Sequence record: PP359570
Length of the DNA: 64,000 bases
Reading direction: 5' to 3' (one strand)
DNA from: Escherichia phage ALITA
The notes beneath the pieces are model-generated. The model was not told where the DNA came from and searched no databases. It worked only from the letters and a program-made list of their open reading frames with translations. The position numbers and the translations under genes are program-made. Shown here one piece after another: positions 6,290 to 38,152 of this stretch; the stretch's first letter is position 1, and each line of letters opens with the position of its first letter.

Positions 6290-8703
6290 TGGCGAATTTT
6301 CCAACATATCCTGCTACGACACTAGAACAAGGTGTTGATCTGGTTATATTCTCGTCTAACCAGATGCATGATGTTATTAATGGGGATGCTACAGCAACTG
6401 TAGAAACCGAAACAGGTTTAATACCTACACTGCGTAAAGCACTTGTTGATAACTTCTTCTTTAAGAGTCCTGTTGCTTGGTCAGCAGGATCAACTGAAAC
6501 TGTATTTAACCAGTTACGTTATTTTGAAAACGGTATCTTGAGTGGGTACTATTATGCCCCATCTGCCACTACTGCGAACCCTGTACCTATGCAGGGCACA
6601 CCTGTAGGGGACAGTAACTGGACTCTGTACGCTCTTAAAACTGAACAGTTAGCTTCAGATGTGTATCCTTGGTATTTTAAAGGTGCTACAGGATATGAAA
6701 CAGAAATCAGTCCTCCTTATATCTTTGATAATGCTATTGTCACCATTAACGGTGTAATTCAGATTCAAGGTGAAGCATTTACTATCAAAGATAGTAAAAT
6801 TATTCTGGCAGAACCATTAGGTTTAGATCCGTCTACTGGTCTACCTAACAAATTGTTTGCTTTTATTGGTAAAACAACAGCCTCTACTTCTTACGTAGAG
6901 AAAAACCTTTTGTCATCTACCACTGGTGCAGCAATGGTTGGTCTTCCATCTGGAGGCAACCTGTTACAAGCTCAATACTTTGTAACGCCTGAGCAGTTTG
7001 GTGCAATTGGTGATGGAGTTACCGATGATACTCAAGCAATTTTAAAAACTATTACTTTCGCTAACACGAATAACATTCAAGTACGTGCAGATAAGAATTA
7101 TAGATTCACAAGCTCAATTGCTATGTCTGGTATTCGTTGGTATGGTGGTACATTCACTGGTAACGGTGGAACAATGATTTCTACTGTGTCCTGTTGGATG
7201 GAAAACGTTCGCTTTGAAAAATGTTATGTTAAGATGTTAGGTGGTGATTGCCGATTCTATCGTAATATCTTCTCCAACGCAACATCTACAGCAGCATTCT
7301 TAATGCAAGCAATGACAAGTGAAGGTACGTTGGACTTCAGTTACAACGAAATGTATGGTTGTAAATATGCGATCCTGCAACAAGGTACTGGAGAAGTAAT
7401 GACCTACGGGCGTTACTCTAACAACTATATTCACGATATCAAAGGTGATGCTATTGAACTTAACGTAGTTCAAAAACACTACACTGAAGGTTTGATTATC
7501 GAGAATAACCACATTGCTAACGTAGATGCTTCTGGACAAGGTGCAAACTGGGGTATTGGTATTGGTGTAGCAGGTAGTGGCCCATATGGTGTTGATGTTC
7601 CTGATTCACAATATGTACGTAATTTCAGTATCGTTGGGAATAGGGTTTACAATTGCCGTCAATGTCTACACGTTGAAATGGGTAAAAACTTCACAATACG
7701 TGATAATGAAGTTTATCCTAACACAGCAGTTTCAACAGGTACAGGTTTAACTACTTGTGGTGTTGCATTATACGGATGCCAAGATTTTGAAGTTGATGGT
7801 TTAACTGGTTATCTGCTCAATGATCCGTCTGTTTCAACACGTATGGTCTTTATTGACTGGGGTGTTAACAGTGGAAGATATGCGGGGCCACCAATTAACT
7901 TTACAATTAAGAATTTGGATATTCCAGAATCTTCAATTGAGATTGCAACCTCTGGATCAGATGCTTGGGAAAACTCTACAATTGTTAGTAATATCAATTG
8001 TAATGTTTTTAAATGGCGTGGGCTACCATCTAGCTCTACTTTTAATAATATTCGTTGCCGTAGTATTGACTTTATTGGTCAACACGGAAGCGGAGAAGGA
8101 AGTGGTGGCGGTTTCTATACTCGCAGCCAATTCACGTATATGAAGTGGGTAGGATGTACAGCACTTAGCGGAGATGAAACAACAGTTTCTTTTGCTAAAA
8201 TCTACACTGATCGTTGCGATCAGGTTGGAAATAACTTTGGTGTTCCAACTGCTGTTGATGGTACAGGTCATCGTGGGCCAGTTTTAACTACTATTTCTGA
8301 ACAATATTTTACAGCTTATGATGAATTCCCAGGTGGGCGTGAATTCCCTACTGGAACAGTTATTCATTGTGCAAGCGGTAAAAAACATGTTGTTACAGTA
8401 GGTGGTGCTTTCTTTAGTGCCAACGAGAAAATAAAAGCAACTGTTACAGGTCAAACCTATCTACAGTCTAATGCTTTAAACTGGGCTAGTAATGGCTACG
8501 CTAAAGCAGCAGGTACTAAGATTGTTATTCCAGGTGCAGGTGCAAATGGCGGCGATCTTGTGACAACTATAGCACGTGCTACATATGTGACAAATAGTTT
8601 GTACACAATAGATATTGCAGATCCAATTGTAACACCTACAGCAGAGAATACACAAATTAAAGCTCTGAATCCTGTTACTTTTGTTACTGTCAACAATGCT
8701 TAA
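6289..8703 (+). CDS. Tailspike with pectate-lyase-like right-handed beta-helix (putative polysaccharide depolymerase)
   Basis: 804 aa; motif FGAIGDGVTDDTQAIL characteristic of pectate lyase superfamily tailspikes; followed by hairpin terminator. Confidence 0.8.
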   Translation: MANFPTYPATTLEQGVDLVIFSSNQMHDVINGDATATVETETGLIPTLRKALVDNFFFKSPVAWSAGSTETVFNQLRYFENGILSGYYYAPSATTANPVPMQGTPVGDSNWTLYALKTEQLASDVYPWYFKGATGYETEISPPYIFDNAIVTINGVIQIQGEAFTIKDSKIILAEPLGLDPSTGLPNKLFAFIGKTTASTSYVEKNLLSSTTGAAMVGLPSGGNLLQAQYFVTPEQFGAIGDGVTDDTQAILKTITFANTNNIQVRADKNYRFTSSIAMSGIRWYGGTFTGNGGTMISTVSCWMENVRFEKCYVKMLGGDCRFYRNIFSNATSTAAFLMQAMTSEGTLDFSYNEMYGCKYAILQQGTGEVMTYGRYSNNYIHDIKGDAIELNVVQKHYTEGLIIENNHIANVDASGQGANWGIGIGVAGSGPYGVDVPDSQYVRNFSIVGNRVYNCRQCLHVEMGKNFTIRDNEVYPNTAVSTGTGLTTCGVALYGCQDFEVDGLTGYLLNDPSVSTRMVFIDWGVNSGRYAGPPINFTIKNLDIPESSIEIATSGSDAWENSTIVSNINCNVFKWRGLPSSSTFNNIRCRSIDFIGQHGSGEGSGGGFYTRSQFTYMKWVGCTALSGDETTVSFAKIYTDRCDQVGNNFGVPTAVDGTGHRGPVLTTISEQYFTAYDEFPGGREFPTGTVIHCASGKKHVVTVGGAFFSANEKIKATVTGQTYLQSNALNWASNGYAKAAGTKIVIPGAGANGGDLVTTIARATYVTNSLYTIDIADPIVTPTAENTQIKALNPVTFVTVNNA

Positions 8704-8744
8704 TTAAAAAGGGGCGAAAGCCCCTTTATAAAAGGAGTAGTAAA

Positions 8745-10706
8745 GTGATTTTAACACGTCCAAATAGTGCCATTGCAGACATGGTAGAGTCTCGCTATAG
8801 AAAGCGTAGAAGTTTTGCAAGTGGTTTTACCTTAAGAGATGCTCGTGAAGCATTGCTCTTTGAAACTGACGGTAACTACTATCAGTGGAAAGGTTCTCTA
8901 CCTAAAGTTGTACCTGCTAACTCTACTCCTACATCTACTGGAGGGATTTCAGATACAGCTTGGAAAAATGTGGGTAATGCAGATGACATTGCTCAAATAG
9001 AATCAGAATTAGATGCTATTGAAGCTGAAATTGAAGATCTTAGAGAATCCATTCCAGAGGCTGGTAAATCAGCTTACCAGATTGCCGTAGACAATGGTTT
9101 CCAAGGTACTGAGACAGAGTGGTTGGCTTCTTTAAAAGGTGATCCAGGTGCTCCATTAAAGCTGCTAGGGACGCTATCTAATACCAACCAATTACCTACA
9201 ACTGGAAACAATGCAGGAGATGCATGGATTGTAGGCGAGAATATGTATGCTTGGGATGGTACGGCTTGGAGAAAAGTAAACTCACAGGGGCCAGAAGGTA
9301 AATCCGCTTATCAAGTTTGGCTTGCAGCAGGAAACCAAGGTACAGAACTAGATTATCTTGCTTCAATTAAAGGTGATAAAGGGGAGCCTGGCCCAGAGGG
9401 GCCACAAGGTGTGCCAGGTAACAATGCTAATGGTTTTGATTACCAAGGTGCAGCTAATTCCGTTTCAGATCTTCCTTCTGCATCTCCTGGAAACACATCT
9501 CAAGCATGGAGTATTGGTACATATCTATACGTGTCAAACGGTGTAGAATGGATCAATATGGGTGCTATAGTGGGGCCAAAAGGAGATAAAGGCGACAAAG
9601 GAGATAAGGGTAACACTGGTGATTCTGCTTATCAAGTCTGGTTAAATGCTGGTAACGTTGGTACTATTGACGAATATATTGCCTCTCTGAAAGGAGAAAA
9701 AGGTGATAAGGGAGACAAGGGTGATCAAGGTGAGCAGGGTATACAAGGCTTGACGGGGCCAACTGGTGCAGGGTTGACCATTATTGATATTCTGACTGAC
9801 ACTTCTGAACTACCAGGAACTGGAGAAGATGGTGATGGTTATCTGATCAATAATGAACTTTGGGTTTGGTTGCAAGGAGCCACACAGTGGACAAATGTTG
9901 GTCGTTTAGCTGGTACTCCAATCACTGCAAAAGGACACGTTGCGTCTGCAAGTGCACTTCCTCCTACATCCAATTACGGTGATGCTTATCTGACGGAAGA
10001 TACAGGTCATCTTTACATTTACACCTATGATGAACAAACTCAAACTGCTGAATATGTAGATATGGGTAGTTTGAAAGGTGATAAGGGTGAGAAAGGTGAC
10101 GCTGGTACTAACGGTACGGATGGTGCAACTTGGATTGTTAAAACAACAGATCCAATCTCTAGTGATGGTAAACAAGGTGATTATGCCTTTAATATCTCCA
10201 CTGGCGAGGTGTTCTTAAAAACATCTGCAACTGTCTGGACTTCTCAAGGTACACTACCTAGCATCACAGATGCACCTAGTGACGGTAAGATCTATGCTCG
10301 TAAAGATGGAGCATGGGAAGAACTCACTAGTTCTGTAGATGGTCAAGATATAGTTCCAACAAAAGTAACAACTAATTTTATAGAGGTTACAGCATACACC
10401 AACAACTCTGTTACAGGGGACTGGACACCTCCAGGAACACATAACATGAATGTGTTGAATCTTACTGGTAACTCTACTATAAAAGCATGGCCTGGTGTCG
10501 AAGATAGCACAAAACCTAAACCATTCTCTGCAATAGTTTATCTTATCCAAGATGCCACTGGGGGTCATACTGTTACTTTAGATCCATCTTACAAAGTAAT
10601 TGGTTCTAGTGATATTAATACAGATCCTAACGGAGTAACAATACTACAACTAACATATTGTGGTGTTGGTGATTACGTGGATGCTATTGTTGCTAAACGC
10701 ACATAA
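8745..10706 (+). CDS. Collagen-like tail fibre protein
   Basis: 653 aa, GTG start after SD AAAAGGAG; multiple G-X-Y collagen repeats (GDKGEPGPEGPQGVPG, GDKGDKGDKGNTG, GEKGDKGDKGDQGEQGIQG). Confidence 0.8.
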   Translation: MILTRPNSAIADMVESRYRKRRSFASGFTLRDAREALLFETDGNYYQWKGSLPKVVPANSTPTSTGGISDTAWKNVGNADDIAQIESELDAIEAEIEDLRESIPEAGKSAYQIAVDNGFQGTETEWLASLKGDPGAPLKLLGTLSNTNQLPTTGNNAGDAWIVGENMYAWDGTAWRKVNSQGPEGKSAYQVWLAAGNQGTELDYLASIKGDKGEPGPEGPQGVPGNNANGFDYQGAANSVSDLPSASPGNTSQAWSIGTYLYVSNGVEWINMGAIVGPKGDKGDKGDKGNTGDSAYQVWLNAGNVGTIDEYIASLKGEKGDKGDKGDQGEQGIQGLTGPTGAGLTIIDILTDTSELPGTGEDGDGYLINNELWVWLQGATQWTNVGRLAGTPITAKGHVASASALPPTSNYGDAYLTEDTGHLYIYTYDEQTQTAEYVDMGSLKGDKGEKGDAGTNGTDGATWIVKTTDPISSDGKQGDYAFNISTGEVFLKTSATVWTSQGTLPSITDAPSDGKIYARKDGAWEELTSSVDGQDIVPTKVTTNFIEVTAYTNNSVTGDWTPPGTHNMNVLNLTGNSTIKAWPGVEDSTKPKPFSAIVYLIQDATGGHTVTLDPSYKVIGSSDINTDPNGVTILQLTYCGVGDYVDAIVAKRT

Positions 10707-10745
10707 TCAAAGCCCCTTCGGGGGCTTATTGTTTAAGGAGATTAA

Positions 10746-12905
10746 ATGTATCCTATTCCTTTATTTATGTCAACAACATCAGCTTCAGTAGTAACAGCTA
10801 CATCTATAACTACTTCCTCTATTGGTATTGCAATAGTTGGTGGTAAAAAACAACTGACATACACAGTTACACCCGAAGATGGTGCGTTATTTGATATAGC
10901 TTTTTCATCTTCAGATGATACCAAAATGGTTATAGATAATAGTGGTATGATGGAGTTTGTTGCCGAAGGTGGTTTTGATGCAATAATGACAGCTAAAAAT
11001 AATTTAGGTGCTGTCTTAACTGATCAATCTGGTGGTTATGCTTCAGAATTAAGTGTGTACACTGAAAGTCTATCGGCTATGGATGTAGGCACTACTCAAC
11101 AGTTGGTTGCTACAATCAGTCCAGAAGGTGCTAAAGACCTTCCAGATATGGTAATTACATACACCACAACAGATCCAGAAGTAGCTACTGTAAGCCCTAC
11201 AGGGTTAATAACTGCTCTTAAAGATGGCGGTTGCCGTATAGGTTGTACTGCAACGTATCAAGGAACAGTTGTGGCCTCTGATAGTTCTTATTTAGGTGTT
11301 AATGCTATTCCTGTTATTTCTAATGTAACAGCCGTGGCAAACAGCTATGGAGACGTTCGTGTTGCTTGGGATGTAGCTGATCCGCTAGACGGTGATACTT
11401 ATACTGTAGAAGTATTAGATTTAAGTAATAATAGTGTTCAGTGGACTACAACAACCACGAATACTTACGCCTACTTTGATATCTCTGACTCTATTCCTCT
11501 TTATGGGTTTGCTCCAACATACCTTAAAATTAGCGTTAAGAGCACCAAAGCAGCAGCCGTTATCTTTAATAACTCAATAGCTACAGATGATTCGTTCATT
11601 AAAGAAGTTATTGTCTTTGCTGGACAAGATAACGTAAATGCACACTTTACAGAACTATCTGGTGCAAATAAAGCAGCAATGGGTAGCACAACAGCCCGTA
11701 ATGCATATGCTACGCAACGTGGTTTAGCAAATGCTGAAGTTCTTCCGTTAAATACAGCTTCTGGATCATCAGCAGCAGATAAATATGCTGACGATAAAGC
11801 TGGAACAGGTACACCAGATAACTACTGGTATGATTTGGATAACACAGCAGATGGGCCATGCTTAACTAACTTTATCACTAAAGTCACACCTTATGCAAGT
11901 AAGGTTAAAGCAATTATTTGGGGACAAGGTGAAAATGATGCTGTATCAGCATCTTCGACTGTTGCAGGTAGGTACAGTAACACTACACGTTACCATGATG
12001 CTACGATAGCTATCTTTGATAAGATGCGTACAATAGTTCCTGCTTCTCAAGCAAAAATTGTTTGGCAGATCCTAGGACGTTCTTATTTATATGGTGTAGA
12101 AGTTAATGGTGTGGATTGGCAGAAGTACAGAAATGTACAAAGAACCATCTCTACAGCACGTGATGATGTTATCATTGGTTCTTGGGTAGATGGTGCTGAA
12201 CGTTACAGTGGTTATGTTTATGAAGAAGGTATTGATGGTCGTATCCATTATGTTTCTTCTGTATACCAAACAGCAGCTACAAAACTTGCTAAATCAGCAG
12301 CAGACGGTACAGACTTAACATCAACGTCACCTGTTTGGGTTGATATGGCTGTTCCAACTGGAGCAACAGCTACTTCCCAACCTAATCAAGATACAATTTT
12401 AGCATGGGATGCTCAAGGCTATAGTAAACACTACTTCCGTAATATTAACGTCTTAACCGCATCTGTATTAACTGAACAAACGCTTAATACGAACAGTTAT
12501 ACGTTTACCTATGCAGATCAAGTAGAACAATATGGTTTTGCAGCAGGAACTACTATATTTGATGTTGCATATTATGACGAAGCAAATGATGTGTTATCTC
12601 CTTTAGTACGTTTTAATGTTAACGTTACAGCAGGAACCGTAGAAGATAAACCTGTCGTGATGGACTATGATTTGACGCAAGAAACTCTTCCATCAGATGT
12701 TAAGGTTAATGGTGGGAACTCTTTTGCTCGTGCTTCTGGAGATATACTTGTAGCCACTAACACCTTGGTTGCTCCGTTGGAGTATGTTGGTAATACCCCT
12801 GTAGGTAGACGTGTAACAGCTAACACAGCTTCACAAATTTTTGTCAACAACGCCTTAACAAGTGCAAGCCCGTGGGTAAAGACCAACTTAACTGTTGCAG
12901 CTTAA
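10746..12905 (+). CDS. Tail fibre/receptor-binding protein with Ig-like (Big_2-type) domains and SGNH/sialate-O-acetylesterase-like domain
   Basis: 719 aa; SD AAGGAG; Ig-like repeats near N-terminus; esterase-like blocks FAGQDNVNAHF and WGQGENDA. Confidence 0.7.
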   Translation: MYPIPLFMSTTSASVVTATSITTSSIGIAIVGGKKQLTYTVTPEDGALFDIAFSSSDDTKMVIDNSGMMEFVAEGGFDAIMTAKNNLGAVLTDQSGGYASELSVYTESLSAMDVGTTQQLVATISPEGAKDLPDMVITYTTTDPEVATVSPTGLITALKDGGCRIGCTATYQGTVVASDSSYLGVNAIPVISNVTAVANSYGDVRVAWDVADPLDGDTYTVEVLDLSNNSVQWTTTTTNTYAYFDISDSIPLYGFAPTYLKISVKSTKAAAVIFNNSIATDDSFIKEVIVFAGQDNVNAHFTELSGANKAAMGSTTARNAYATQRGLANAEVLPLNTASGSSAADKYADDKAGTGTPDNYWYDLDNTADGPCLTNFITKVTPYASKVKAIIWGQGENDAVSASSTVAGRYSNTTRYHDATIAIFDKMRTIVPASQAKIVWQILGRSYLYGVEVNGVDWQKYRNVQRTISTARDDVIIGSWVDGAERYSGYVYEEGIDGRIHYVSSVYQTAATKLAKSAADGTDLTSTSPVWVDMAVPTGATATSQPNQDTILAWDAQGYSKHYFRNINVLTASVLTEQTLNTNSYTFTYADQVEQYGFAAGTTIFDVAYYDEANDVLSPLVRFNVNVTAGTVEDKPVVMDYDLTQETLPSDVKVNGGNSFARASGDILVATNTLVAPLEYVGNTPVGRRVTANTASQIFVNNALTSASPWVKTNLTVAA

Positions 12906-13565
12906 TCTGATAAATCTCCGGCTGGAACTACTGCCAATGTATTCAAATTAACTCCGACTACAACCTCTGGTAGTCATATCTTAACTGCAACATATACTAA
13001 CGCGTACAACATATCTGCCGGACGTAACTGGTCTGCCTCTGTTTTCTTGAAAGCGAACGGGATCACTAAGGCCAAACTAAGATTAAAAGCAGGAACTGAA
13101 GTTAATGAGGGTACTTTTGATTTAGCAGCAGGTACATTCACAGGAAGTGAAGCTAATATTATATCTATGGGCAACGGTTGGTATCGTGCTATTCTGCATA
13201 AAACAGGGATAGCCAAACAGTCCTCCATAAGTTTTGAAATAATTGCCTTGGATGCAACTGGTGCGGAGATTTTCGCTGGAGATGGTACTAGTAACCTTGC
13301 AGTTTGGTTGCCACAGCTTGAAGGTGCTTCTACAGGAGAAACATCAAAAGCTGGATCGCCTTATGTCTGCACATATCCTGGAAATTTAGGAGGAGTATCC
13401 TTCACTATACCAAGGAACGGACATACTGGTGTGGATGTTTACTATTCCAACGGAGACGTTGTTCGTGACGTATTCTCTGGTACGGCATCTACTTGGACAA
13501 TAAACTACTCCAGCTTGTACGATTGGGGATCAGTCTTTATTACAGGTTTGAAATATTACGACTAA
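12906..13565 (+). CDS. In-frame continuation of the preceding fibre gene after a single TAA (putative C-terminal distal domain; readthrough, pseudogene or error)
   Basis: Same reading frame as 10746-12905, no ATG or SD for 140 nt after the stop; ORF track start at 13047 is TTG. Confidence 0.4.
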   Translation, partial: SDKSPAGTTANVFKLTPTTTSGSHILTATYTNAYNISAGRNWSASVFLKANGITKAKLRLKAGTEVNEGTFDLAAGTFTGSEANIISMGNGWYRAILHKTGIAKQSSISFEIIALDATGAEIFAGDGTSNLAVWLPQLEGASTGETSKAGSPYVCTYPGNLGGVSFTIPRNGHTGVDVYYSNGDVVRDVFSGTASTWTINYSSLYDWGSVFITGLKYYD

Positions 13566-13598
13566 TAAAAAAGGAGCCATTAGGCTCCTTTTCTTTTA
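13566..13598. terminator. Bidirectional intrinsic terminator between convergent operons
   Basis: AAAAAAGGAGCC-ATTA-GGCTCCTTTTCTTTT hairpin flanked by A/T tracts. Confidence 0.7.
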
Positions 13599-13600
13599 TC

Positions 13601-14032
13601 TTAGTCAGTGAAAATTACGCTTACATCTTCTTTAGAAAAGAGTTTATGATCTTCACCTTTTGTCTCAAGAGTTTCATACAGATTAAGAAGTTCTGAAACA
13701 TCTTTCTCTACCAGTTTCTTCAATGTTGCAATTTTCTGTTTGCGACTCTTAATACGTTCAGCTACAACCTTACGCTGGTATCCGGCAGTACGATAACCTG
13801 AGAAAGTTACACCAGTAAGGCTTGCAGTCACAGGATCGTAGTGACGTTCAATCTGAAACTTATTAAAAGGTACAGCGTCATCACGAATAATCTTACCGCC
13901 ATTACTTACCTGACGAAGACCAGTAACTTGCTCCAGTCGTGCCATAGAAATCTTTGGAGACAGACCAGAGTCCAGGTTCATACCATTGTTAATCAGTGCT
14001 TTCAGGGTGATTTTGCTGTTCAGTGTACTCAT
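13601..14032 (-). CDS. Hypothetical protein co-transcribed with methyltransferase
   Basis: 143 aa; SD GGAGG 9 nt upstream; start overlaps end of MTase gene. Confidence 0.55.
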   Translation of the reverse strand: MSTLNSKITLKALINNGMNLDSGLSPKISMARLEQVTGLRQVSNGGKIIRDDAVPFNKFQIERHYDPVTASLTGVTFSGYRTAGYQRKVVAERIKSRKQKIATLKKLVEKDVSELLNLYETLETKGEDHKLFSKEDVSVIFTD

Positions 14033-14720
14033 TTAGTCGTTCCTCCGCTTGCTTAAAAATATTTACATCGGCTTCACAGCCTAAGTATTCTCTACCTGTT
14101 AAAAGTGCCGCAACTTGTGTTGTTGCACTTCCAGAGAAGAAGTCTAAGACTACATCTCCTTCGTTGGTGTGTATATTAATAAGGTCACAAAACAAAGTCA
14201 AGTGTTTTTGTGTTGGATGAAAACGATCTGCTCCTTGATAGATAGGATACTCAAACACACCCTTATGGTAGGAAGCATTGAAGGTTGGCTTCGAACCTTT
14301 AACACAAACAATAGCCATCTCTTTAGCGTTACTAAGGTAGTTAACACCACTGTTGATGGGTACAGGGTTTGTTTTAATCCATTCGATAGTACGGAACATA
14401 CGAAAACCAAGCGGTTCAAGGATTTCACGTAGCTCCTGGATCTTCCAGATATCATACCAAACTATGCAAGTACCACCTTTTCTAAGCACCCTGTAGGCTT
14501 CTTTGAATACTTCTTTAAAGTAAGGAATATCTACAACATCCCAATCACCGAAGTTGTAAGATACACGGAATCTATCCGTATCTTTTCCAGTCGGCTCTCC
14601 AGATTGAAAATTTGTGTCACGAGAAATAGCATATGGTGGGTCAGTAAGAATCAAATCTACACTATTGCTTTCGAGGGTTTGCAGGTAGTTTAATGCGGTG
14701 TTGTTTACAAATTCGCTCAT
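13989..14720 (-). CDS. DNA methyltransferase, beta-class amino-MTase (N6-adenine or N4-cytosine)
   Basis: 243 aa; DPPY catalytic motif near N-terminus and SAM-binding FFSGSATT near C-terminus (beta-class order); strong SD AAGGAGAT. Confidence 0.85.
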   Translation of the reverse strand: MSEFVNNTALNYLQTLESNSVDLILTDPPYAISRDTNFQSGEPTGKDTDRFRVSYNFGDWDVVDIPYFKEVFKEAYRVLRKGGTCIVWYDIWKIQELREILEPLGFRMFRTIEWIKTNPVPINSGVNYLSNAKEMAIVCVKGSKPTFNASYHKGVFEYPIYQGADRFHPTQKHLTLFCDLINIHTNEGDVVLDFFSGSATTQVAALLTGREYLGCEADVNIFKQAEERLNEYTEQQNHPESTD

Positions 14721-14736
14721 TATATCTCCTTCAAAG

Positions 14737-14758
14737 AAAAGGAGCCGTTAGGCTCCTT
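14737..14758 (-). terminator. Hairpin terminator, near-identical copy of the 13566 hairpin
   Basis: AAAAGGAGCC-GTTA-GGCTCCTT followed on minus strand by TTTTCTTTG. Confidence 0.6.
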
Positions 14759-14780
14759 ATATTCACACAATATTTAACTA

Positions 14781-15728
14781 TTAGAAACAGTGCAGGAAGT
14801 TTCGACCATACTGCAAACCAATAGGAGCAAATGGGATATCATCATCGAAATCTTGAACAACAGGTTCTGGTTCTTTCGGTGCTGGCTCTTTCTTCTCTAC
14901 TTTTTTAGTTTCTTTCTTAACTTCTTGTACCGGGGTAGACATTCCACGGATAGCAGCAGCTACTTTATCAGACAAAGCAAGAACTTCACGAGCAGCTTCA
15001 ATAATCTCTTCTGCCGTTACAGTTTTACCTGTATGATCACGACAAGCGTTAAGAATTGCGTGTCCAACTGAAGCACCAAGATCATAGTCAGTTACATCAA
15101 CGCCACGATCTTTAGCAATTTCTGCTTTCAGAGTAACAGTTGCAGATTGTACCACACCAGCCAAGTCGAAAGCATCACCTTTCACACCAGCACGTAGAAG
15201 CTCCAGAGCGCCGTTTACAGCGTGTCCTGTTTCAATCCCTACGGTATCACGTTTTTTGTAGTTAGGCTTGCTACCTTCGTTATTAGATGGCTTATTTCCA
15301 CCTTTTGAAGAAGATTGTGCTTGCTGAACACCTTCTGTTGAAAGAATAGTGATTTTACCTTTAGAGGAATTGTAGTATGTTTTGCCATTCCATTCAGAAG
15401 GTTTAACATCCATAGTTAGTTCTACACCTTTTTCGATAGTAACCCACTTATCACCATCTTTAACTTGCAGGTTTTCATGTTCTGGGTGCAGTTTAACTTC
15501 ACCTAGGCTAACCCAAACACCTTTATCATCAGCACCAGCACCTTTCTCTTTAATAAGCAGGGATGCTTTGTGAGTTGATTCAATTTTCTTATCTGGCTGA
15601 CCTGCAACCTTAATATAAGAAACTTTCATTTCATCAAACTTATCTAGTTTGACATATTCAACGATACCTTCAGCCCAGAATGCTTCTTTTTTAGTACGAC
15701 GGTCGATTTCAGAATTAATTACTGGCAT
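14781..15728 (-). CDS. Single-stranded DNA-binding protein-like
   Basis: 315 aa; acidic DFDDDIPF motif (as at bacterial SSB C-terminal tip) 15 residues from the end; G/S/N-rich linker; position beside replisome genes. Confidence 0.55.
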   Translation of the reverse strand: MPVINSEIDRRTKKEAFWAEGIVEYVKLDKFDEMKVSYIKVAGQPDKKIESTHKASLLIKEKGAGADDKGVWVSLGEVKLHPEHENLQVKDGDKWVTIEKGVELTMDVKPSEWNGKTYYNSSKGKITILSTEGVQQAQSSSKGGNKPSNNEGSKPNYKKRDTVGIETGHAVNGALELLRAGVKGDAFDLAGVVQSATVTLKAEIAKDRGVDVTDYDLGASVGHAILNACRDHTGKTVTAEEIIEAAREVLALSDKVAAAIRGMSTPVQEVKKETKKVEKKEPAPKEPEPVVQDFDDDIPFAPIGLQYGRNFLHCF

Positions 15729-15744
15729 AAATTCTCCTCTATAA

Positions 15745-16143
15745 TTACATTACTTTAACACAAAACTCTCGTAAAAGAGTAGCGTCAGTTTCTTCCAACA
15801 GGTATTTACCAAGACCAATACCAAATCCTATTTCACCACTTTCGAAATGGAGGATTTGTATCTTTTCTCCACCAAGGTTAATTACTTTTGCTTTTCCAGG
15901 ATTATCCAAAACATCTCGTATTGTATCCTGTAGTAGCATTAGTTCACGTTTTGTGATAGTGGTTTCAGATATCTCTTTGTTTTCTACTCTCACTGTTAAA
16001 CGGTTGTATCCACCAAAGAGACATAGTATTTGAATAAAAAAGGTATTATCTTGAGGTTCAACATCTTTTTTAGTTAGTTCAAGACGATTAGTTTCTCTAC
16101 TATAGAACGTCTCGACTAAGATTTTAGAACGATTATCTGTCAT
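15745..16143 (-). CDS. Hypothetical protein
   Basis: 132-aa ORF in replication block. Confidence 0.45.
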   Translation of the reverse strand: MTDNRSKILVETFYSRETNRLELTKKDVEPQDNTFFIQILCLFGGYNRLTVRVENKEISETTITKRELMLLQDTIRDVLDNPGKAKVINLGGEKIQILHFESGEIGFGIGLGKYLLEETDATLLREFCVKVM

Positions 16144-16186
16144 TCAAGTCCTCATAATAACACATAATTATAATGTTTGTCAACAC

Positions 16187-16780
16187 TTAAATTTTAAATT
16201 CTTCACTGTTAAATGAATCCAGTGTACGTACTTCTGGTTCTTTGGGAATGAAAACATCTTTTACAAAGCGGAACATAGGGAAACGTTCTGCCATTTTACG
16301 GACGTGTGCTTCTTTACCTGTGTATCGGTGATTAATAGTACAAATATTAGTTTTCAGTGCAAATTCAAAATCTGGATGATATACATAATTTTGACCGTCC
16401 CAGTAACACAGGCAAATAGCTACATCAAAGTTCCATACGATTTCACTGCGTACACCTTCTTCCATGATCATAAAGTTAAACTTAAGATCTTTATAGTATG
16501 CTTCAAATACCCATTTCAAATGTGGTAGTTCGGCATAAGTGTGTTCTGTTTGCTTAGTAAGTTGTTTAACATTACGTGCACCAACACCCAACATCAAAAA
16601 TTTCTCTACTAATACGAGTGTATTGTGGTTAGGCATACGCAAGTAAATGTCAATATCTTGCGCAGGTTTCTCTAATCGCCAGTCACGTACAGCGCCGCCA
16701 GCTACAATTGCAAACGGATCTACCAGTTGGCACATACGTAATACTTCTAAAGCTCGTACTTTTTGATCTTCAATATTCAT
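16187..16780 (-). CDS. Nucleotidyltransferase (pol-beta-like head domain; CCA-adding/poly(A)-polymerase family-like)
   Basis: 197 aa; motif FAIVAGGAVRDWRLEKPAQDIDIY resembling GGAVRD...DxD of tRNA nucleotidyltransferases. Confidence 0.55.
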   Translation of the reverse strand: MNIEDQKVRALEVLRMCQLVDPFAIVAGGAVRDWRLEKPAQDIDIYLRMPNHNTLVLVEKFLMLGVGARNVKQLTKQTEHTYAELPHLKWVFEAYYKDLKFNFMIMEEGVRSEIVWNFDVAICLCYWDGQNYVYHPDFEFALKTNICTINHRYTGKEAHVRKMAERFPMFRFVKDVFIPKEPEVRTLDSFNSEEFKI

Positions 16781-16815
16781 ATTTTCTCCTATCTCTTATG
16801 GTCTTTGCGTTATTC

Positions 16816-16833
16816 TAGATGTTCAAACATCTA
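16816..16833. promoter_or_regulatory. Perfect 8-bp-arm palindrome (candidate operator) upstream of nucleotidyltransferase gene
   Basis: TAGATGTT-CA-AACATCTA. Confidence 0.3.
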
Positions 16834-16919
16834 ATTATGAAATAGTTTAAAAGTGCGGAACAACCTTGGCAATCACAGATTGTTCCACATAAAAACTCCT
16901 TATAAAACAATATGTTAGA

Positions 16920-19499
16920 CTAATGACAAGACGCCCATGAGTTACCAACATCGTAACCAGCAGTGAGAGGTACATTAAGATTGTAATACTCACCAGCTTT
17001 ATTAACAGCGATAGATGCTAATTCTCCAGCACGACTGTAGGCTGTAAACCAACCACCTTTCGGAGATTCATGTACGTTAGCCCAAATCTTGCCAGTACGT
17101 TTCTCTTCCTCTTCTTTCCAGGCATTAACCTTATCCAAACATTCTTTATCAATTTTCTTTTGTTCTTCTGGATCATCAACTTGAGTCCAACCTAAAGATT
17201 CTTTAGAGAACCATTTAAAATGCACCAGATCACGAGTTACTTCAAGCTGTGCTTCATCGTGATATGCAATCATTTGTTGAACGAATGACTTATTTTTCCA
17301 GTCATCAACAAAAAAGTCAACAGCTAATCCTTCTTCTTCGATAAGATCGTCGTAGATAACCATTGCTCTTTTTGCACAAATAACACCACCACTCTGGAAC
17401 AGAGAGTTAAGTATTGCGTGTGCAGATCGTGTAGGTACTTTCCTACCATCAATACCAAGAATGTATTTCTTACCTGTTTTAACCCAAAAATCATGCAGAC
17501 GTTCTTTAAGAAGCGCAAGAGGTTTTGCAGCTTCCCAGAAAGCATCGTATACAAGCTGTCCTGTATACATATCACTACCTATAGTTTTTGCTACTTTTGC
17601 AGCTTGAGCACCATAAGTAATACCATACTTAACAGATTTAGCAGGGCTTCGTTCAAACTTACGACCAATAGTGTCAGAAATACGTCGAGCCATCATTGTA
17701 TGAACATCATTAGGTTTTTCCAATAATAGAGCATTACAATATTCGTGTGGTTCCTGCTCGTACCGCCAACAGTAGTGTGATTCTATTTTTGCCTCAAGAG
17801 AATCAAAGTCATAACCAATTTGGAAGTATTTTGGAACTTCTACACCAAATAAGTTACGCATTTCATATCCGTACAGAGATGTTACACGTGGGATATTTGC
17901 TACTAACCTATGTTTCATACGAGACGTAGCTGCATCACACGTTGCAGCAGGAGTTGGTATACGACCATCAGCCCTTACTGCTGCCAGATAACCTTTATCG
18001 TAATCCTCTTCATCTTCTTCCCAATCAGCACCACCCCCTAGAATAGAGTTCCTACGGTGTTTATACGTAAGATACTGCACAATCTGCGTAGCATAAGGAA
18101 ACTTTTCACCTAGTGCTTCCAAGTTAGGACAAATATCTTTCTCTTGCCCTTTTGTAAAGGAAGGGTTAGTAAGCACTTTAACACCACGACCTTTAGCTTT
18201 AGCAATACGATCTCTTAGTTTCCATTCCAAAGTTTCTGGTGTGCACTCCAGATGATCACATCTGTCCTGGCAGAAGTTAGATGCTAACGTTTGATCAACA
18301 TAGTCACGAATAGCTTTCTCCATCTGTGCTTCATCTTTCTTAATCTTAGTGCCAGATTTAAGAGTGATATCTTTATCTTTATATTCAGATGGACTCCAAC
18401 CTAAACCAACTAACCAATTTTTAATATGTGTAGTGTCGTCTAAAGTAGCAGGTACTGTAGGATCACAAATAGGTTCTTCTGCTGGAATAGGCAGTTTAAA
18501 CTCTTTACCTAATGCAAATAACCACCAACCATCTTCTTTTTGTACAAGTTCACCAGAATGTTTCTCTGCAAACTTTATCATGTTACTTGAAGGTTCACCA
18601 TTCTTTTTAAACTGTAGTTTAGGTGGAATGAATGATTTCAAATAACCTTTAGTAGCAGGTTTAGGAGGTAGCACAGGTTCTGCCTCTAAACGACATGCTT
18701 CCATTCGAGCATCCAGATCACGAATATTATCTTCTGCTTGCTTCATATTGAAAGCAAAGCCACGGTGCTCTTGACGTGTAATAATATCAGCTACACGTTG
18801 TTCTAAGTTAAATGGTTCAGACCACTTATTATAATCACCCCACTCTTCCATCAAATAACGGAACACTGCGGTGTTAGCTTTGTTATCGTAAATACAGTAA
18901 TACAGCATATCTGCTGCAAATGTTTTAAATCTTTCAGTTTCAGGGATGTTTTTTCTAAAATCAATTTTAACATCCCCTCCAGCTTTCTTAGATAACTCTG
19001 CCAGACTATGACCACCGAAGCGATCAGGGTTTAGTGTCTTACTTAAGATCATAGTATCACAAATTTCAATGTTACTATTACCCCAAGTATTGTACTTAAT
19101 ACTGTAGTTGAGTTTAAAAAATAATTTAATTGCCAGTAAGTCAAAGTTAATGATGTTATGTCCAACTACTTTGGTAATTTTATAGTTTGAATTACCTTTA
19201 AATTTACCTGTTCCATTTACAAAATCAGGAAAATCTTTAAGAGGGAAATGGGTATATTCTAAATGCTCATATTCCTCCAGTCGGTATTCATACTTTCCGT
19301 CAGTCTCAATATACGGACGACCATCGAAAAGATATTTATCACCATCATGGAAAGCAATAATCTCTCCAGTATCATGACTTTCGCACACAATACAGTGCAT
19401 TGCAAAACTATCTTTTAAACGATATGGACTTGCCAAGTAATCTACACTTTCGTCATTAAGCAAGTTGTTACTTTCAATGTCGAAAGTAAAAGCTCCCAT
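16920..19499 (-). CDS. DNA polymerase, family A (T7 gp5-like)
   Basis: 859 aa; motif A GYDFDSLEAKI, motif B RSPAKSVKYGITYG, motif C YHDEAQ; C-terminus ...NSWASCH like T7 ...NWAICH; SD AAGGAGG. Confidence 0.95.
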   Translation of the reverse strand: MGAFTFDIESNNLLNDESVDYLASPYRLKDSFAMHCIVCESHDTGEIIAFHDGDKYLFDGRPYIETDGKYEYRLEEYEHLEYTHFPLKDFPDFVNGTGKFKGNSNYKITKVVGHNIINFDLLAIKLFFKLNYSIKYNTWGNSNIEICDTMILSKTLNPDRFGGHSLAELSKKAGGDVKIDFRKNIPETERFKTFAADMLYYCIYDNKANTAVFRYLMEEWGDYNKWSEPFNLEQRVADIITRQEHRGFAFNMKQAEDNIRDLDARMEACRLEAEPVLPPKPATKGYLKSFIPPKLQFKKNGEPSSNMIKFAEKHSGELVQKEDGWWLFALGKEFKLPIPAEEPICDPTVPATLDDTTHIKNWLVGLGWSPSEYKDKDITLKSGTKIKKDEAQMEKAIRDYVDQTLASNFCQDRCDHLECTPETLEWKLRDRIAKAKGRGVKVLTNPSFTKGQEKDICPNLEALGEKFPYATQIVQYLTYKHRRNSILGGGADWEEDEEDYDKGYLAAVRADGRIPTPAATCDAATSRMKHRLVANIPRVTSLYGYEMRNLFGVEVPKYFQIGYDFDSLEAKIESHYCWRYEQEPHEYCNALLLEKPNDVHTMMARRISDTIGRKFERSPAKSVKYGITYGAQAAKVAKTIGSDMYTGQLVYDAFWEAAKPLALLKERLHDFWVKTGKKYILGIDGRKVPTRSAHAILNSLFQSGGVICAKRAMVIYDDLIEEEGLAVDFFVDDWKNKSFVQQMIAYHDEAQLEVTRDLVHFKWFSKESLGWTQVDDPEEQKKIDKECLDKVNAWKEEEEKRTGKIWANVHESPKGGWFTAYSRAGELASIAVNKAGEYYNLNVPLTAGYDVGNSWASCH

Positions 19500-19567
19500 T
19501 CTCCCTCCTTAAAATATTTCTAAAGTCTTAATTTGTTAATACTGTACCACAAATTAATTGTTTTGTA

Positions 19568-19589
19568 AAGGGGCTTTCGCCCCTTCTTG
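19568..19589 (-). terminator. Hairpin between small gene and DNA polymerase gene (attenuator or processing site)
   Basis: AGGGGC-TTTC-GCCCCT stem-loop; weak U-tract. Confidence 0.4.
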
Positions 19590-19986
19590 TTATTTATTGT
19601 CAGCACTTAGTTGTACTTTAATAAGGCAATTAGGGACACCATTGGTATTTCTCAAGCCTACACGTTCAATTTTAACAGTGCCTGTCAAACCATTAAAAGT
19701 GGAAACAATGTTATTAATGTTTTCATCCTTACTAGTGATATCAAGAATAACTTTATCACTGACATTTTTCAACATACGATCTACAAGCTCTCCCACAAAA
19801 CCACTGGTAGTTTGAATGAGAAGGTATAGACAACCATCCTCAAACCACAAATGTTCACCATAAGCATAACCGTATGGTTCTAATTCTGATCCGTCTTGAA
19901 ATTTAAACTTAGCAATAGTTTTCGTATAATCATACGCTAAAGCAGAAGGGCATACCCCATAGAGGATGTTTTCGTTGTCTTTCATA
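19590..19986 (-). CDS. Hypothetical protein
   Basis: Start reassigned to internal ATG with SD GGAGAAA (MKDNENIL...); 132 aa. Confidence 0.45.
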
Positions 19987-19995
19987 TTTTTCTCC

Positions 19996-21768
19996 TTAAT
20001 AAGAACCAGCAGAAATATTTTCTGGGTTACTTGTGTATTGATCGTAATCGTGAAGTGTAGCTGTTTTAATCTCATAGAAGAAACTACCTGCTGCACCAGT
20101 CTCTGAGAACTCACGGTTCTTTAGAATGTAGCAATATGTGCGGTTACGTTCCATAGGATCTTCAGCTTGTTTATCACGCTCCAGCGCAATTGTGATACCA
20201 GCACCTTTAGCAAGGAAGCTACTACCCATTGCATCATCTTCTACAATATGTTCATTACTATTGTTAGAAGACTTTTTAACGTGTGAAATTACAACAATGG
20301 TTATTGCATACTCTTTCATAATGCGTTTCAGCCACGTCGCAAGTTCCTCTTGTTGTGACACGTCCATACCAGAAAGCAAATCAGAATAAGGGTCGATAAC
20401 AAGAATGGTTACTCCGAAATAAATAATCATTTCCAGAACCTTCTCTTTAATCACATCTACGTTAGCTCCACGATCATCACAAACATAGAAACGTGGTGTT
20501 CCATCTTCTCGTTCGTAAAAATCACGAATCTTTTCTTCATTATCTTTTAAAATCTTTTCCTTCTCTTCTTTCGTTTTACGGTGAAGAGGGATATGCAAGA
20601 ATGAAGACAGTAAGTTACGAGAATACTTCTTATACGTTGCCTCCAAAGATAAAATACCAAGAGTATGTTCTGGGTGTGCAAGAATAATGTGTTTCGTAAT
20701 CTCGTTAACCAACAGTGTCTTACCGATACTTGTTTTTGCAAGTATAACAGTAATTTCTTCTTCTACCAAGCCTCCACCTAACATATTCGAAGCAACACGC
20801 ATGAATGGAGGAAGGGTGATCATTTTAGCTTCCAGGCATTCCAAGGCTGCTTCATATAGTACGTTAGAAGCGTAAACACCAGCAGGTGTGTACAGTTTAG
20901 CTTTGAAAAAGCGATCAATAAAATGATCAATTTTTCCTTCTACTAGTGCCTGGTTAGGATCTTTAACATCCGTTAGTTCCATCACGTAAACTTTATTACG
21001 TGGTAAGATTTTAACACATTTCTCAACTGCTGCACGTCCAGCTTCATCATTATCCATACATAGAACAATCTTTTTAAATTGATCTAAGAATTTATAACGA
21101 TGTTGAAGCTGCTTATGCAGAGATGTTTCGCCACAAGTACCAGATACTACAGCAGGAACAGGATATTTACCACCCTTGTTATAATCTTTTAGCATCTGTG
21201 TTGCAGCCAGCATATCGTGTTCACCACCAACGATTAGAATAGTACCGCTGTGGTTACGATATTTAAACTCCCCAAAAAGATCACAATCCTTTCCTGTTTC
21301 ACCGATAGGATGTGAGAAATCTTTTGGATCGATACGTTGTTTATACCCAGCAATATTGTAATCTTTAGTTGTAGGGTATAGTGTTGAAATTACTTCGCCA
21401 GTAGCTTCATCGTACATATAACGTACACCGAAAGGCTTAGAGATATCTTCACGAATACCGCGATAACCTTTTGGATTAGTTCCAGTGCTGGCTTTTAGTT
21501 TATCATGTACTTCTGGATTAAACTCACTACCCAAGATATCCTCCTCTTCAATTTCTTCGCCGTGTGCATTTAACCATTTTTGATCAGGGATAGTAAAGCC
21601 ACAAGAAAAACAATGTGCGCCTCGATGGTCTTCATCGGCATCTAAGCCATATACCATCAAATTGTTTTGTGATCGATCACGCCCTCCTTTCATACAACGA
21701 GGACACCCAGTATGTCCTTCTTGACTTAGATCAATGTTATACCCATATTTATTTACAACATAAGACAC
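19996..21768 (-). CDS. Primase-helicase (T7 gp4-like)
   Basis: 590 aa; N-terminal zinc ribbon CPRC...CFSCGF, then DnaB-like helicase with Walker A LAKTSIGKT. Confidence 0.9.
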   Translation of the reverse strand: MSYVVNKYGYNIDLSQEGHTGCPRCMKGGRDRSQNNLMVYGLDADEDHRGAHCFSCGFTIPDQKWLNAHGEEIEEEDILGSEFNPEVHDKLKASTGTNPKGYRGIREDISKPFGVRYMYDEATGEVISTLYPTTKDYNIAGYKQRIDPKDFSHPIGETGKDCDLFGEFKYRNHSGTILIVGGEHDMLAATQMLKDYNKGGKYPVPAVVSGTCGETSLHKQLQHRYKFLDQFKKIVLCMDNDEAGRAAVEKCVKILPRNKVYVMELTDVKDPNQALVEGKIDHFIDRFFKAKLYTPAGVYASNVLYEAALECLEAKMITLPPFMRVASNMLGGGLVEEEITVILAKTSIGKTLLVNEITKHIILAHPEHTLGILSLEATYKKYSRNLLSSFLHIPLHRKTKEEKEKILKDNEEKIRDFYEREDGTPRFYVCDDRGANVDVIKEKVLEMIIYFGVTILVIDPYSDLLSGMDVSQQEELATWLKRIMKEYAITIVVISHVKKSSNNSNEHIVEDDAMGSSFLAKGAGITIALERDKQAEDPMERNRTYCYILKNREFSETGAAGSFFYEIKTATLHDYDQYTSNPENISAGSY

Positions 21769-21780
21769 AGGATTCTCCTA

Positions 21781-22050
21781 CTAAAATGATTCGTTTGTCT
21801 CCATAATATATTGCATTTCCAAATCTTCCATATGTTTCTTAAATTGGTAAACAATTTCCGATGGGGAAATATCTATATCAAAAAGTTCTTTTGTACCAGA
21901 ATAAAACCTAATACCATCAACAATAAGACCACCATAATAATCCCAATCACTTTCTCGTGAGAAAGGGTTAGGTTCTTCATAATAGTAATCTACTTCAACA
22001 ATAATAGGTTCTTTATTATCTTGTTTATACTCAAAATCAAAAGTGTGCAT
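21781..22050 (-). CDS. Hypothetical protein
   Basis: 89 aa, SD GAGGA. Confidence 0.45.
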   Translation of the reverse strand: MHTFDFEYKQDNKEPIIVEVDYYYEEPNPFSRESDWDYYGGLIVDGIRFYSGTKELFDIDISPSEIVYQFKKHMEDLEMQYIMETNESF

Positions 22051-36944: not shown

Positions 36945-36966
36945 AAGGAGGCTTTCGCCTCCTTTT
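36945..36966 (-). promoter_or_regulatory. Hairpin between AAA ATPase gene and downstream genes
   Basis: AAAGGAGGC-TTTC-GCCTCCTTT. Confidence 0.4.
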
Positions 36967-38132: not shown

Positions 38133-38152
38133 AGTTTTCTCCTCTATTTAAT

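Follow-up and report, generated by a model that had tools for sequence, protein, structure and literature searches.

Why should two almost identical hairpins stand on either side of a methyltransferase gene in a phage genome? In Escherichia phage ALITA (sequence record PP359570), a cassette of two genes, one for a putative DNA methyltransferase and an overlapping one for a protein of 143 amino acids (aa), is bracketed by two such hairpins of 22 bp (hairpin 1 and hairpin 2). An earlier note on this DNA, made from the sequence alone, had suggested a moron-type insertion or a terminator motif reused on both sides, with the 143-aa protein possibly setting the specificity or regulation of the methyltransferase. 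We examined the locus in a stretch of 64,000 nucleotides from this record (hereafter, “the window”) and in its relatives. The whole is best explained, with a good measure of confidence on our part, by terminators that delimit an accessory module of methyltransferase and partner gene in a variable slot of a phi92-like phage. The hairpins themselves are already known, being annotated as terminators in the public records of sister phages; the main new point is the association of the methyltransferase with its partner, together with a high-confidence model of the unannotated family to which the partner belongs.

Over the region 12900-16200, the window shares 99.2% identity with Escherichia phage alia and 98-99% with dozens of further Justusliebigvirus genomes, and by this similarity it is another isolate of the phi92-like myoviruses (Justusliebigvirus, Stephanstirmvirinae). 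The records of phi92 gp154/gp155 (FR775895) and of annotated copies in 55 Justusliebigvirus genomes have the same genes in the same order, with both hairpins, at 97-100% identity, and we found no difference from them. The cassette genes correspond to phi92 gp155, entered there as a putative site-specific DNA methyltransferase, and gp154, entered as a hypothetical protein; we use these names below. The pair is placed between plus-strand tail genes, the last of which stops at 13565, and minus-strand replication genes (SSB-like, nucleotidyltransferase and DNA polymerase). The SSB-like gene is gp156, and gp157, the nucleotidyltransferase gene and the DNA polymerase gene lie further upstream of it on the minus strand.

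The hairpins and the slot that they border

The motif AAAAGGAGCC-(A/G)TTA-GGCTCCTT is found at 13569-13590 (AAAAGGAGCCATTAGGCTCCTT) and at 14737-14758 (AAAAGGAGCCGTTAGGCTCCTT). The two 22-mers agree at 21 of 22 positions, the sole mismatch being the first loop base (A versus G), so the near-identical bracketing hairpins described in the earlier note are real; its coordinates for hairpin 2 were exact, and its start for hairpin 1 (13571) is corrected here to 13569. When up to 3 mismatches were allowed, these two were the only matches in the 64 kb, and none appeared in 100 shuffles. The core GGAGCC-N4-GGCTCC occurs only twice in the window, and the complete 147,009-bp alia genome gave the same two-copy-only result, with the copies 1.17 kb apart around one cassette. 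A hairpin common throughout the genome and a cassette present in all relatives, which the note had named as observations that would speak against it, were not what we found: there is no other exact copy, and the cassette is absent from Phapecoctavirus.

Judged from sequence, both hairpins are ordinary intrinsic (Rho-independent) terminators. They rank first and second in a terminator scan of 8000-22000, and each has a G+C-rich stem of 8-10 bp, a 4-nt loop and a T-run. The predicted fold energies are -13.6 and -18.3 kcal/mol, and hairpin-centred stretches are more stable than shuffled sequence (z-scores of -4.9 to -6.0). The features that define an intrinsic terminator, a stem-loop with a U-run and a placement at gene ends with compensatory changes, are present, with the U-run of hairpin 2 on the minus strand only. 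Both hairpins are annotated as terminators in the GenBank records of phages Paula and vB_Eco_PATM, and the Paula record annotates hairpin 1 on both strands; these annotations and the top scan ranks bear out the terminator reading. Compared with intrinsic terminators generally, including bidirectional ones between convergent operons, the pair shows the same G+C-rich stem, tetraloop, T-run and placement right after stop codons, and the only unusual feature is that two neighbouring terminators are so nearly identical. Rfam returned only sub-threshold small RNA matches, which centre on the two terminators and fall well short of the gathering scores.

Hairpin 1 is flanked by an A-run and, on its other side, by a T-run, and these two runs make it read as a terminator on both strands; it lies 4 nt past the stop of the tail gene and 9 nt from the stop of gp154. 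Orthologues with the same flanks (ATAAAAGAAAAGG ... CCTTTTTTATTA) are present in phAPEC8_ev052, ZCKP1, Mt1B1_P17 and the outgroup Seu621, as well as in relatives known from contigs, to which we refer by our labels L010-L012 and L146-148. Their stems vary yet remain complementary (GGAGCC, GGGAACC, GGGAGCCTC, GGCTCCC), such that the sequence differs and the pairing is kept at 10 orthologous sites. These hairpins were folded one by one; a MAFFT alignment lost the structural register, and covariation was therefore not counted. The comparison shows hairpin 1 to be an ancient bidirectional terminator, predicted to act where tail-gene (plus-strand) and replication-gene (minus-strand) transcription converge.

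Only on the minus strand does hairpin 2 have a T-rich tail (TTTTCTTTG); the hairpin follows the SSB stop at a distance of 22 nt, and the ATG of the methyltransferase gene comes 17 nt further on. A hairpin at this position is also present in L010, L011, L012 and L146-148, and all cargo-bearing relatives have one after the SSB gene, including those in which its sequence is different. Placement and tail show hairpin 2 to be the predicted end of the gp157-gp156 (SSB) message. As a separate matter, the 3' arm of hairpin 2 (CUCCUU) might instead pair, in the RNA, with the AAGGAG ribosome-binding site of the methyltransferase gene; we rejected this alternative, since the terminator fold dominates and the pairing is impossible in L010 and L012.

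What lies between the two terminators differs among relatives. We located homologues of the SSB-like gene by tblastn and examined the region downstream of each, a synteny comparison of the kind that the earlier note had proposed, and neither Phapecoctavirus nor Seu621 was found to carry the cassette. The slot between SSB and tail genes in phAPEC8_ev052 (Phapecoctavirus) is 64 nt long and holds a single hairpin, AAAAGGGAACC-TTTGCG-GGTTCCCTTTTTT, whose flanks (ATAAAAGAAAAGG, CCTTTTTTATTAGTCGTAA) are those of hairpin 1 in the window; in Seu621 (Mydovirus, the outgroup subfamily) the slot is likewise empty, with one hairpin that has the same flanks and a flipped stem. Because both flanks of hairpin 1 match those of the empty-site hairpin, hairpin 1 is ancestral and not cassette-borne. 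ZCKP1 and Mt1B1_P17 (Phapecoctavirus) have in the slot a gene for a 136-aa HNH-type endonuclease followed by one hairpin, which in ZCKP1 is identical to hairpin 1 of the window. By blastn, ZCKP1 is 97% identical to window positions 12657-13599, the match stopping 2 nt before the gp154 stop codon, and the SSB homology ends at 14781. These two endpoints make the cassette a clean 1.18-kb indel at ~13600-14780, and hairpin 2 falls inside the extra DNA.

The window and all 55 phi92-type records have the same slot contents (hairpin 2, methyltransferase, gp154, hairpin 1), and the gp154, methyltransferase and hairpin-2 region is carried by 55/55 phage records with a phi92-type SSB, at 98.5-100% identity. 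Since the sister genus and the outgroup subfamily both show an empty slot, gain of the cassette in the phi92-like lineage is the simpler reading, by parsimony and not by proof. An origin of the ZCKP1 arrangement by deletion between the two hairpins was also considered and rejected, both flanks of the ZCKP1 hairpin being of the hairpin-1 type.

More distant relatives extend the range. The metagenomic L010, L011 and L012/L013, whose gp154 is 56-66% identical to that of the window, retain the order SSB, hairpin, methyltransferase, overlapping gp154, hairpin and convergent tail gene. In L010 and L012/L013 the two hairpins are unlike; those of L010 are AAGGGGC-TTCG-GCCCCTT upstream and GGGAGCCTC-TTGC-GAGGTTCCC downstream. 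L011 has, in addition, an HNH gene between the SSB gene and a hairpin identical to hairpin 2 of the window, and a different hairpin downstream; its upstream hairpin, tail and ribosome-binding site match those of hairpin 2 over 34 nt, with coding DNA only ~71% identical. L146-148 (IMG/VR) show the same synteny with an SSB 59% identical and no methyltransferase within 2.5 kb: the slot holds a hairpin, a promoter, a gp154-like gene alone and a second hairpin. Both hairpins there are of the GGAGCC/GGCTCC type, the upstream one with loop GAAA and the downstream one with loop TTTC; after the former come the tail TTTTCTTT, as in hairpin 2 of the window, and then a TTGACG-N17-TAATAT promoter.

The slot thus has at least five kinds of content across relatives, namely nothing, HNH, methyltransferase with gp154, HNH with methyltransferase and gp154, and gp154 alone. 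A predicted terminator after the SSB gene and another before the tail gene are the conserved layout; an identical stem at both recurs in some lineages, not in all. These comparisons show the cassette to be a lineage-specific accessory module of two predicted genes in a slot of varying content, which reaches from the end of the SSB-like gene to the convergent tail gene. An HNH-type endonuclease gene (CxxCG...KP...F, with a second Cys pair) was observed right after the SSB gene in several relatives (L011, 270-700; L006/L007, 4434-4899), beginning within a few nucleotides of the SSB stop, and homing by this gene may contribute to the turnover of the slot.

The morons of lambdoid phages are reportedly, after Juhala, Hendrix and colleagues in 2000, extra gene blocks that are present or absent at the same site in syntenic relatives and are closed by a terminator. 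The window cassette shares with them the presence or absence at one site in otherwise syntenic relatives and a downstream terminator. It differs from them in that no promoter of its own was detected, in that the phage is lytic, leaving no prophage expression, and in that hairpin 1, which follows the cassette downstream, is the ancestral terminator of the site. The suggestion of a moron-type insertion thus stands in the loose sense of an insertion, the site being empty or occupied by HNH in Phapecoctavirus, and is not supported in the strict sense, no own promoter having been found.

Origin of the resemblance

Reuse of terminator sequences is normal in this genome. A census of perfect-stem terminators in alia gave 28 strand-sites, among which AAGGGGCTTTCGCCCCTT recurs at 4 sites and AAACCCGCTTCGGCGGGTTT, AAGGGCGCTTATTGCGCCCTT and AAGCCCCTTCGGGGGCTT at 2 sites each, AAACCCGCTTCGGCGGGTTT having a near copy as well; such recurrence suggests either that the phage draws on few terminator sequences or that copies have spread through the genome. 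At least 120 unrelated IMG/VR contigs contain the stem AAGGAGCC-N4-GGCTCCTT, and 110 of the 121 same-stem matches listed have adjoining A or T runs. Loops among the matches listed are mostly TTTC, CGAA, GAAA and TTCG; TAAT appears twice, and TAAC/GTTA falls outside the 20 commonest. In all, 278 phage records have a hairpin-1-like sequence; many are unrelated, and jumbo phages, T4-like phages and small siphoviruses are among them. Given that terminator sequences recur and that the stem is generic, the near-identity of the hairpins is not special to the cassette. The terminator motif reused on both sides, as the earlier note put it, is one of several, at least four other sequences recurring at 2-4 sites each; L010 and L012, more divergent relatives with the cassette but with unlike hairpins, show that such reuse is not a property of the cassette in every lineage.

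Two side observations concern the same sequences. Identical terminator hairpins were seen at separate loci of the window (10710-10727, 19568-19585 and 36945-36966). Hairpin-1-like sequences, 94-95% identical over 37-38 nt, were also seen in Salmonella phage phSE-2 (NC_031026.1) and in Klebsiella K50-type phages (PQ569662.1 / PQ569676.1), unrelated siphoviruses of ~49 kb in which they sit between an SSB gene and a tail fibre gene, a junction comparable to that in the window.

How the two hairpins came to be alike has two candidate answers, duplication or gene conversion on one side and convergence on the other, to which we give similar weight. One possibility, held tentatively, is that the hairpins are paralogous, having arisen by duplication or gene conversion when cargo entered, and that the 22-bp direct repeats would serve as recombination linkers for the gain, swap or loss of cargo. 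Promoter-early stem-loops (PeSLs), mobile regulatory cassettes of T4-type phages (PMC2839356, PMC4122927), offer a precedent (PMC2839356): there, as in the window, non-essential genes of a variable region lie between repeated terminator stem-loops, and the cargo varies among close relatives, just as the slot holds five or more different contents. The identical stems with loops one transition apart fit such an origin, as does the loop TAAY, rare for this stem among the 121 IMG/VR matches listed, and in L146-148 different cargo in the same slot is again bracketed by GGAGCC/GGCTCC hairpins, the upstream one forming, with its sigma-70 promoter, the PeSL layout. The window differs from PeSLs in having two copies only in the genome and no promoter part; the composite of sigma-70 promoter and stem-loop in many repeats was not found there, and the composite itself occurs only in L146-148. 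Moreover, among the relatives read, no empty-site or hybrid hairpin combines a hairpin-2 left flank with a hairpin-1 right flank, those of ZCKP1 and phAPEC8_ev052 having both flanks of the hairpin-1 type; the cassette has been lost in 0/55 phi92-like genomes; and the hairpins of L010 and L012 are unlike each other.

The resemblance may instead have no link to the cassette, independent terminators having converged on one of the few good terminator sequences of the phage group; we regard this, too, as possible without favouring it. The four other recurrent terminator sequences of alia would be expected under convergence, as would the occurrence of the stem in unrelated viral contigs, mostly with A or T runs, and the many phage records that match hairpin 1. 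Convergence accounts less readily for the shared TAAY loop, unusual for this stem, for the fact that the sole two copies in 147 kb lie so close together around one cassette, and for the same stem on both sides in L146-148.

The methyltransferase, its partner and their expression

The predicted protein gp155 is a putative beta-class DNA methyltransferase. Its 243-aa open reading frame (ORF) matches PF01555 (N6_N4_Mtase) with E=1.9e-30 and 106.9 bits against a cut-off of 26.7, and the motif DPPY (motif IV, residues 26-29) precedes FSGSATT (motif I, residues 195-201), which is the beta-class order; it also matches phrog_67 and PADLOC MTase_II. The family match, the motif order and the ORF layout confirm what the earlier note had read from the letters, a beta-class enzyme with an overlapping 143-aa ORF between the structural and replication blocks. 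The closest solved relative, over the full length (E=1e-28), is M1.HpyAVI (PDB 5HEK/5HFJ); this N6-adenine methyltransferase is dimeric, has a target-recognition region that is short and disordered, and methylates GAGG, GGAG and GAAG (PMC5173035). Compact beta-class enzymes of the M1.HpyAVI/DpnA type share with gp155 a similar size (232-240 aa, versus 243), the beta order of DPPY and FxGxG, and a short target-recognition region; gp155 differs in being only ~30-35% identical, in being an orphan, and in having behind it a small, conserved partner gene with no counterpart for M1.HpyAVI. The orphan status follows from the neighbourhood, in which no restriction endonuclease gene is adjacent: gp154 has no nuclease or defence-family match, and the cassette adjoins the SSB-like gene and a tail gene. 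Across 50,697 phage records, relatives above 56% identity were found only in Justusliebigvirus, and the next-best matches were DpnA-like enzymes of Gram-positive phages at 30-38% identity. Most likely, gp155 would make N6-methyladenine at a short site and so protect phage DNA from some host restriction enzymes.

The partner gp154 founds a family of its own, so far unannotated; it matches only phrog_20244, with function not assigned, and has no match in Pfam, NCBIfam or PADLOC. The profile search that the earlier note had proposed for this protein was run against 1.84 billion representative proteins and gave 32 relatives, nearly all of them small (~100-143 aa); a locus search with a narrower alignment of the gp154 family gave 5 loci. 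A search of the family profile against PDB sequences returned coiled-coil noise only. Pfam scans of 29 family members, one by one, gave no consistent family and no helix-turn-helix family match; one member had a weak NUMOD4 match (E=0.011), which we do not use as evidence. An alignment of 29 sequences has G23, S25, R50, D52, F77 and G79 invariant and shows a conserved G-x-R-Q-x-S-N-G-x-x-I-I-R-x-D-x-x-P-F pattern, and AlphaFold2 run on it gave a model with pLDDT 95 and pTM 0.73 (an earlier model from 4 sequences, at pLDDT 53, was too poor to use). The model predicts helices at 4-15 and 30-37, a conserved loop, a beta-hairpin (59-65/72-80), a 43-residue helix (83-125) and a short C-terminal helix. 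In the model, the N-terminal globular domain weakly resembles a winged helix. It has no canonical recognition helix, and with no helix-turn-helix match in the 29 members, gp154 does not fit the Xre-type controller (C) proteins of restriction-modification systems. Most likely, gp154 would bind nucleic acid as a coiled-coil dimer.

A gp154 homologue directly follows a PF01555 methyltransferase of 233-260 aa in 13 of the 15 lineages sampled. Where complete, these methyltransferase genes encode proteins 54-86% identical to that of the window (one contig, L152, holds the last 35 residues only), and the gp154 homologues in these lineages are 24-66% identical to gp154. The neighbourhoods of the module are mutually unrelated, with thymidylate synthase, ribonucleotide reductase, PhoH/ClpP or T7-like genes. 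This recurrence shows the methyltransferase-gp154 pair to be a conserved and apparently mobile module, present also in unrelated phage neighbourhoods, and gp154 probably acts with the methyltransferase. The functional partnership supposed by the earlier note thus gains strong contextual support; specificity and regulation, the roles that it had offered for gp154, are among the candidates.

Two further proposals give gp154 a DNA-bound role. The first, which we think unlikely, would make gp154 and its ~30 cluster relatives the DNA-binding or targeting subunit of a two-component phage methyltransferase; separately, it would make the twin terminators recombination linkers that move cargo at the SSB/tail junction. 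As part of the same unlikely proposal, a compact enzyme with a short target-recognition region would need a translationally coupled, dimeric, winged-helix-like partner for its DNA sites. The second, to which we give very little credence, takes the GGAGCC-N4-GGCTCC palindromes as double-stranded DNA and makes them operator sites of dimeric gp154, or targets of the methyltransferase, instead of or besides terminators. The basic gp154, with a long predicted helix suited to dimerization and its weakly winged-helix-like domain, would suit an operator, and the palindrome flanks gp154-like genes in both the window and L146-148; yet it is also present where gp154 is not, in ZCKP1 and Mt1B1_P17 (and, in variant form, in phAPEC8_ev052 and Seu621), does not accompany the distant gp154 homologues of L017, L018, L021 and L022, and is replaced by a different upstream hairpin in L010 and L012. 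As for a methylation target, the stem contains GGAG, and M1.HpyAVI methylates GAGG/GGAG (PMC5173035).

How would a module lying behind a terminator be expressed? The region's strongest sigma-70 match (11/12; TTGACA-18-TATTAT and an upstream TG) lies just before gp157 at 16183-16154 on the minus strand, and its -35 and -10 are kept in phi92, L010, L012 and Phapecoctavirus. In L010 and L012, as an aside, the -35 hexamer of this promoter is inside a GGGGTTGACAAACCCC hairpin, so that the stem-loop overlaps the promoter. Between the SSB stop and the methyltransferase ATG (14720-14800, minus strand) there is no sigma-70 match, phage-specific promoters being outside the scan, and the 22 nt between the SSB stop and hairpin 2 are not conserved in L010-L012. 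Given a hairpin that follows the SSB gene and leaves 17 nt before the ATG, the cassette is probably expressed by read-through of hairpin 2, and, no own promoter having been found, a strict moron is not supported. The gp154 and methyltransferase ORFs share 44 nt (13989-14032), which suggests translational coupling of gp154; overlaps of 4-44 nt are conserved in relatives, with L022 having a 32-nt gap instead.

An autonomous moron, with its own promoter and transcribed independently of the SSB operon, is a reading that we consider quite improbable, since the window has only 17 nt between hairpin 2 and the ATG, and the 22 nt before hairpin 2 show no promoter match and are not conserved in L010-L012. 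It draws on the relatives: the same module has clear promoters just upstream in L021 (TTGACT-N17-TATAAT) and L022 (TTTACA-N16-TACAAT), and the gp154-like gene that stands alone in L146-148 has its own promoter. The promoters of L021 and L022 indicate that regulatory parts belong to the host site, not to the module.

Under read-through of hairpin 2, transcription would start at the conserved sigma-70 promoter and drive gp157 and the SSB-like gene. Hairpin 2 would stop most transcripts, giving much SSB, and the fraction that reads through would enter the methyltransferase gene, giving little enzyme. Translation of gp154 would be coupled through the 44-nt overlap and its own GGAGG site (14042-14046), and hairpin 1 would end both the read-through transcripts and the opposing tail-gene transcripts.

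Several points weigh against this account of the module and its expression. Termination efficiency and read-through are quantities that we infer, and the sigma-70 scan would miss phage-specific middle or late promoters. Two of the lineages sampled break the pairing: the whole genome of Pseudoalteromonas phage J2-1 has an alpha-class Dam-type enzyme only, with no homologue of the window methyltransferase, and L146-148 carry the gp154-like gene alone, with its own promoter and no such methyltransferase within 2.5 kb. The partner is therefore not strictly dependent on the enzyme. In addition, the BASEL study found phi92-like phages exceptionally sensitive to the restriction systems tested (PMC8594841), so any protection by the methyltransferase must be narrow.

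Features of the region and what the slot offers

The features of the region are collected in Table 1.

Table 1. Positions in the window of the cassette, its hairpins and the neighbouring features
Feature	Position	Strand	Remarks
Convergent tail protein gene	10746..13565	+	ends at hairpin 1; in-frame TAA 12903-12905
Hairpin 1, predicted bidirectional intrinsic terminator	13569..13592	both	stem AAAAGGAGCC/GGCTCCTTTT, loop ATTA, T-runs on both strands
gp154-like gene, 143 aa, basic (pI 9.6)	13601..14032	-	unannotated family
gp155-like putative orphan DNA methyltransferase, 243 aa, beta class	13989..14720	-	compact M1.HpyAVI/DpnA type
GGAGG ribosome-binding site of gp154, within methyltransferase gene 3' end	14042..14046	-	also annotated in phi92 record
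AAGGAG ribosome-binding site of methyltransferase gene	14726..14731	-	also annotated in phi92 record
Hairpin 2, predicted intrinsic terminator or attenuator	14737..14758	- only	AAGGAGCC-TAAC-GGCTCCTT, then TTCTTTG
gp156-like SSB-type protein, 315 aa, upstream gene of transcription unit	14781..15728	-	internal DFDDDIPF + 15-aa extension
Sigma-70-type promoter upstream of gp157	16154..16183	-	TTGACA, 18 nt, TATTAT, with TG

Some observations on the neighbouring genes and on the records compared stand apart from the cassette. The tail gene is a single ORF of 939 codons in alia and Paula; the window has TAA at 12903-12905 in place of TCA (C to A at 12904), truncating the protein at residue 719, which could be a real nonsense mutant or a sequencing error. 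The C-terminus of the SSB-like gp156 (14781-14828, minus strand) has the classic SSB tip DFDDDIPF followed by 15 extra residues, APIGLQYGRNFLHCF. This extension is kept in phi92, ZCKP1, Mt1B1_P17 and the outgroup Seu621, and the SSB-like proteins of phAPEC8_ev052, L010, L011, L012 and L146 end at DIPF, without it; the buried tip is unusual, and partner binding may be altered. In alia, a gene for a 198-aa HNH endonuclease (alia 37790-38386) lies between the nucleotidyltransferase and DNA polymerase genes, where the window has only a gap of 139 nt (16781-16919). Finally, several of the GenBank MG0656xx ‘Campylobacter phage’ records (e.g., MG065645, MG065689, MG065639) are 98-100% identical here to phi92-like phages of E. 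coli, and others match rV5-like phages over this region; the labels look like mislabelling or contamination.

The comparison marks out the junction of the SSB-like gene with the convergent tail gene as a small hot spot at which accessory genes are exchanged among phi92-like and phAPEC8-like phages. A slot that tolerates cargo and has ready-made terminators would be useful for engineering these broad-host-range therapeutic phages. The unannotated family of proteins of 130-140 aa, which almost always travels with one clade of compact orphan methyltransferases, offers a testable case for a methyltransferase accessory factor. If gp154 is such a factor, this would change how phage methylomes and anti-restriction strategies are read.

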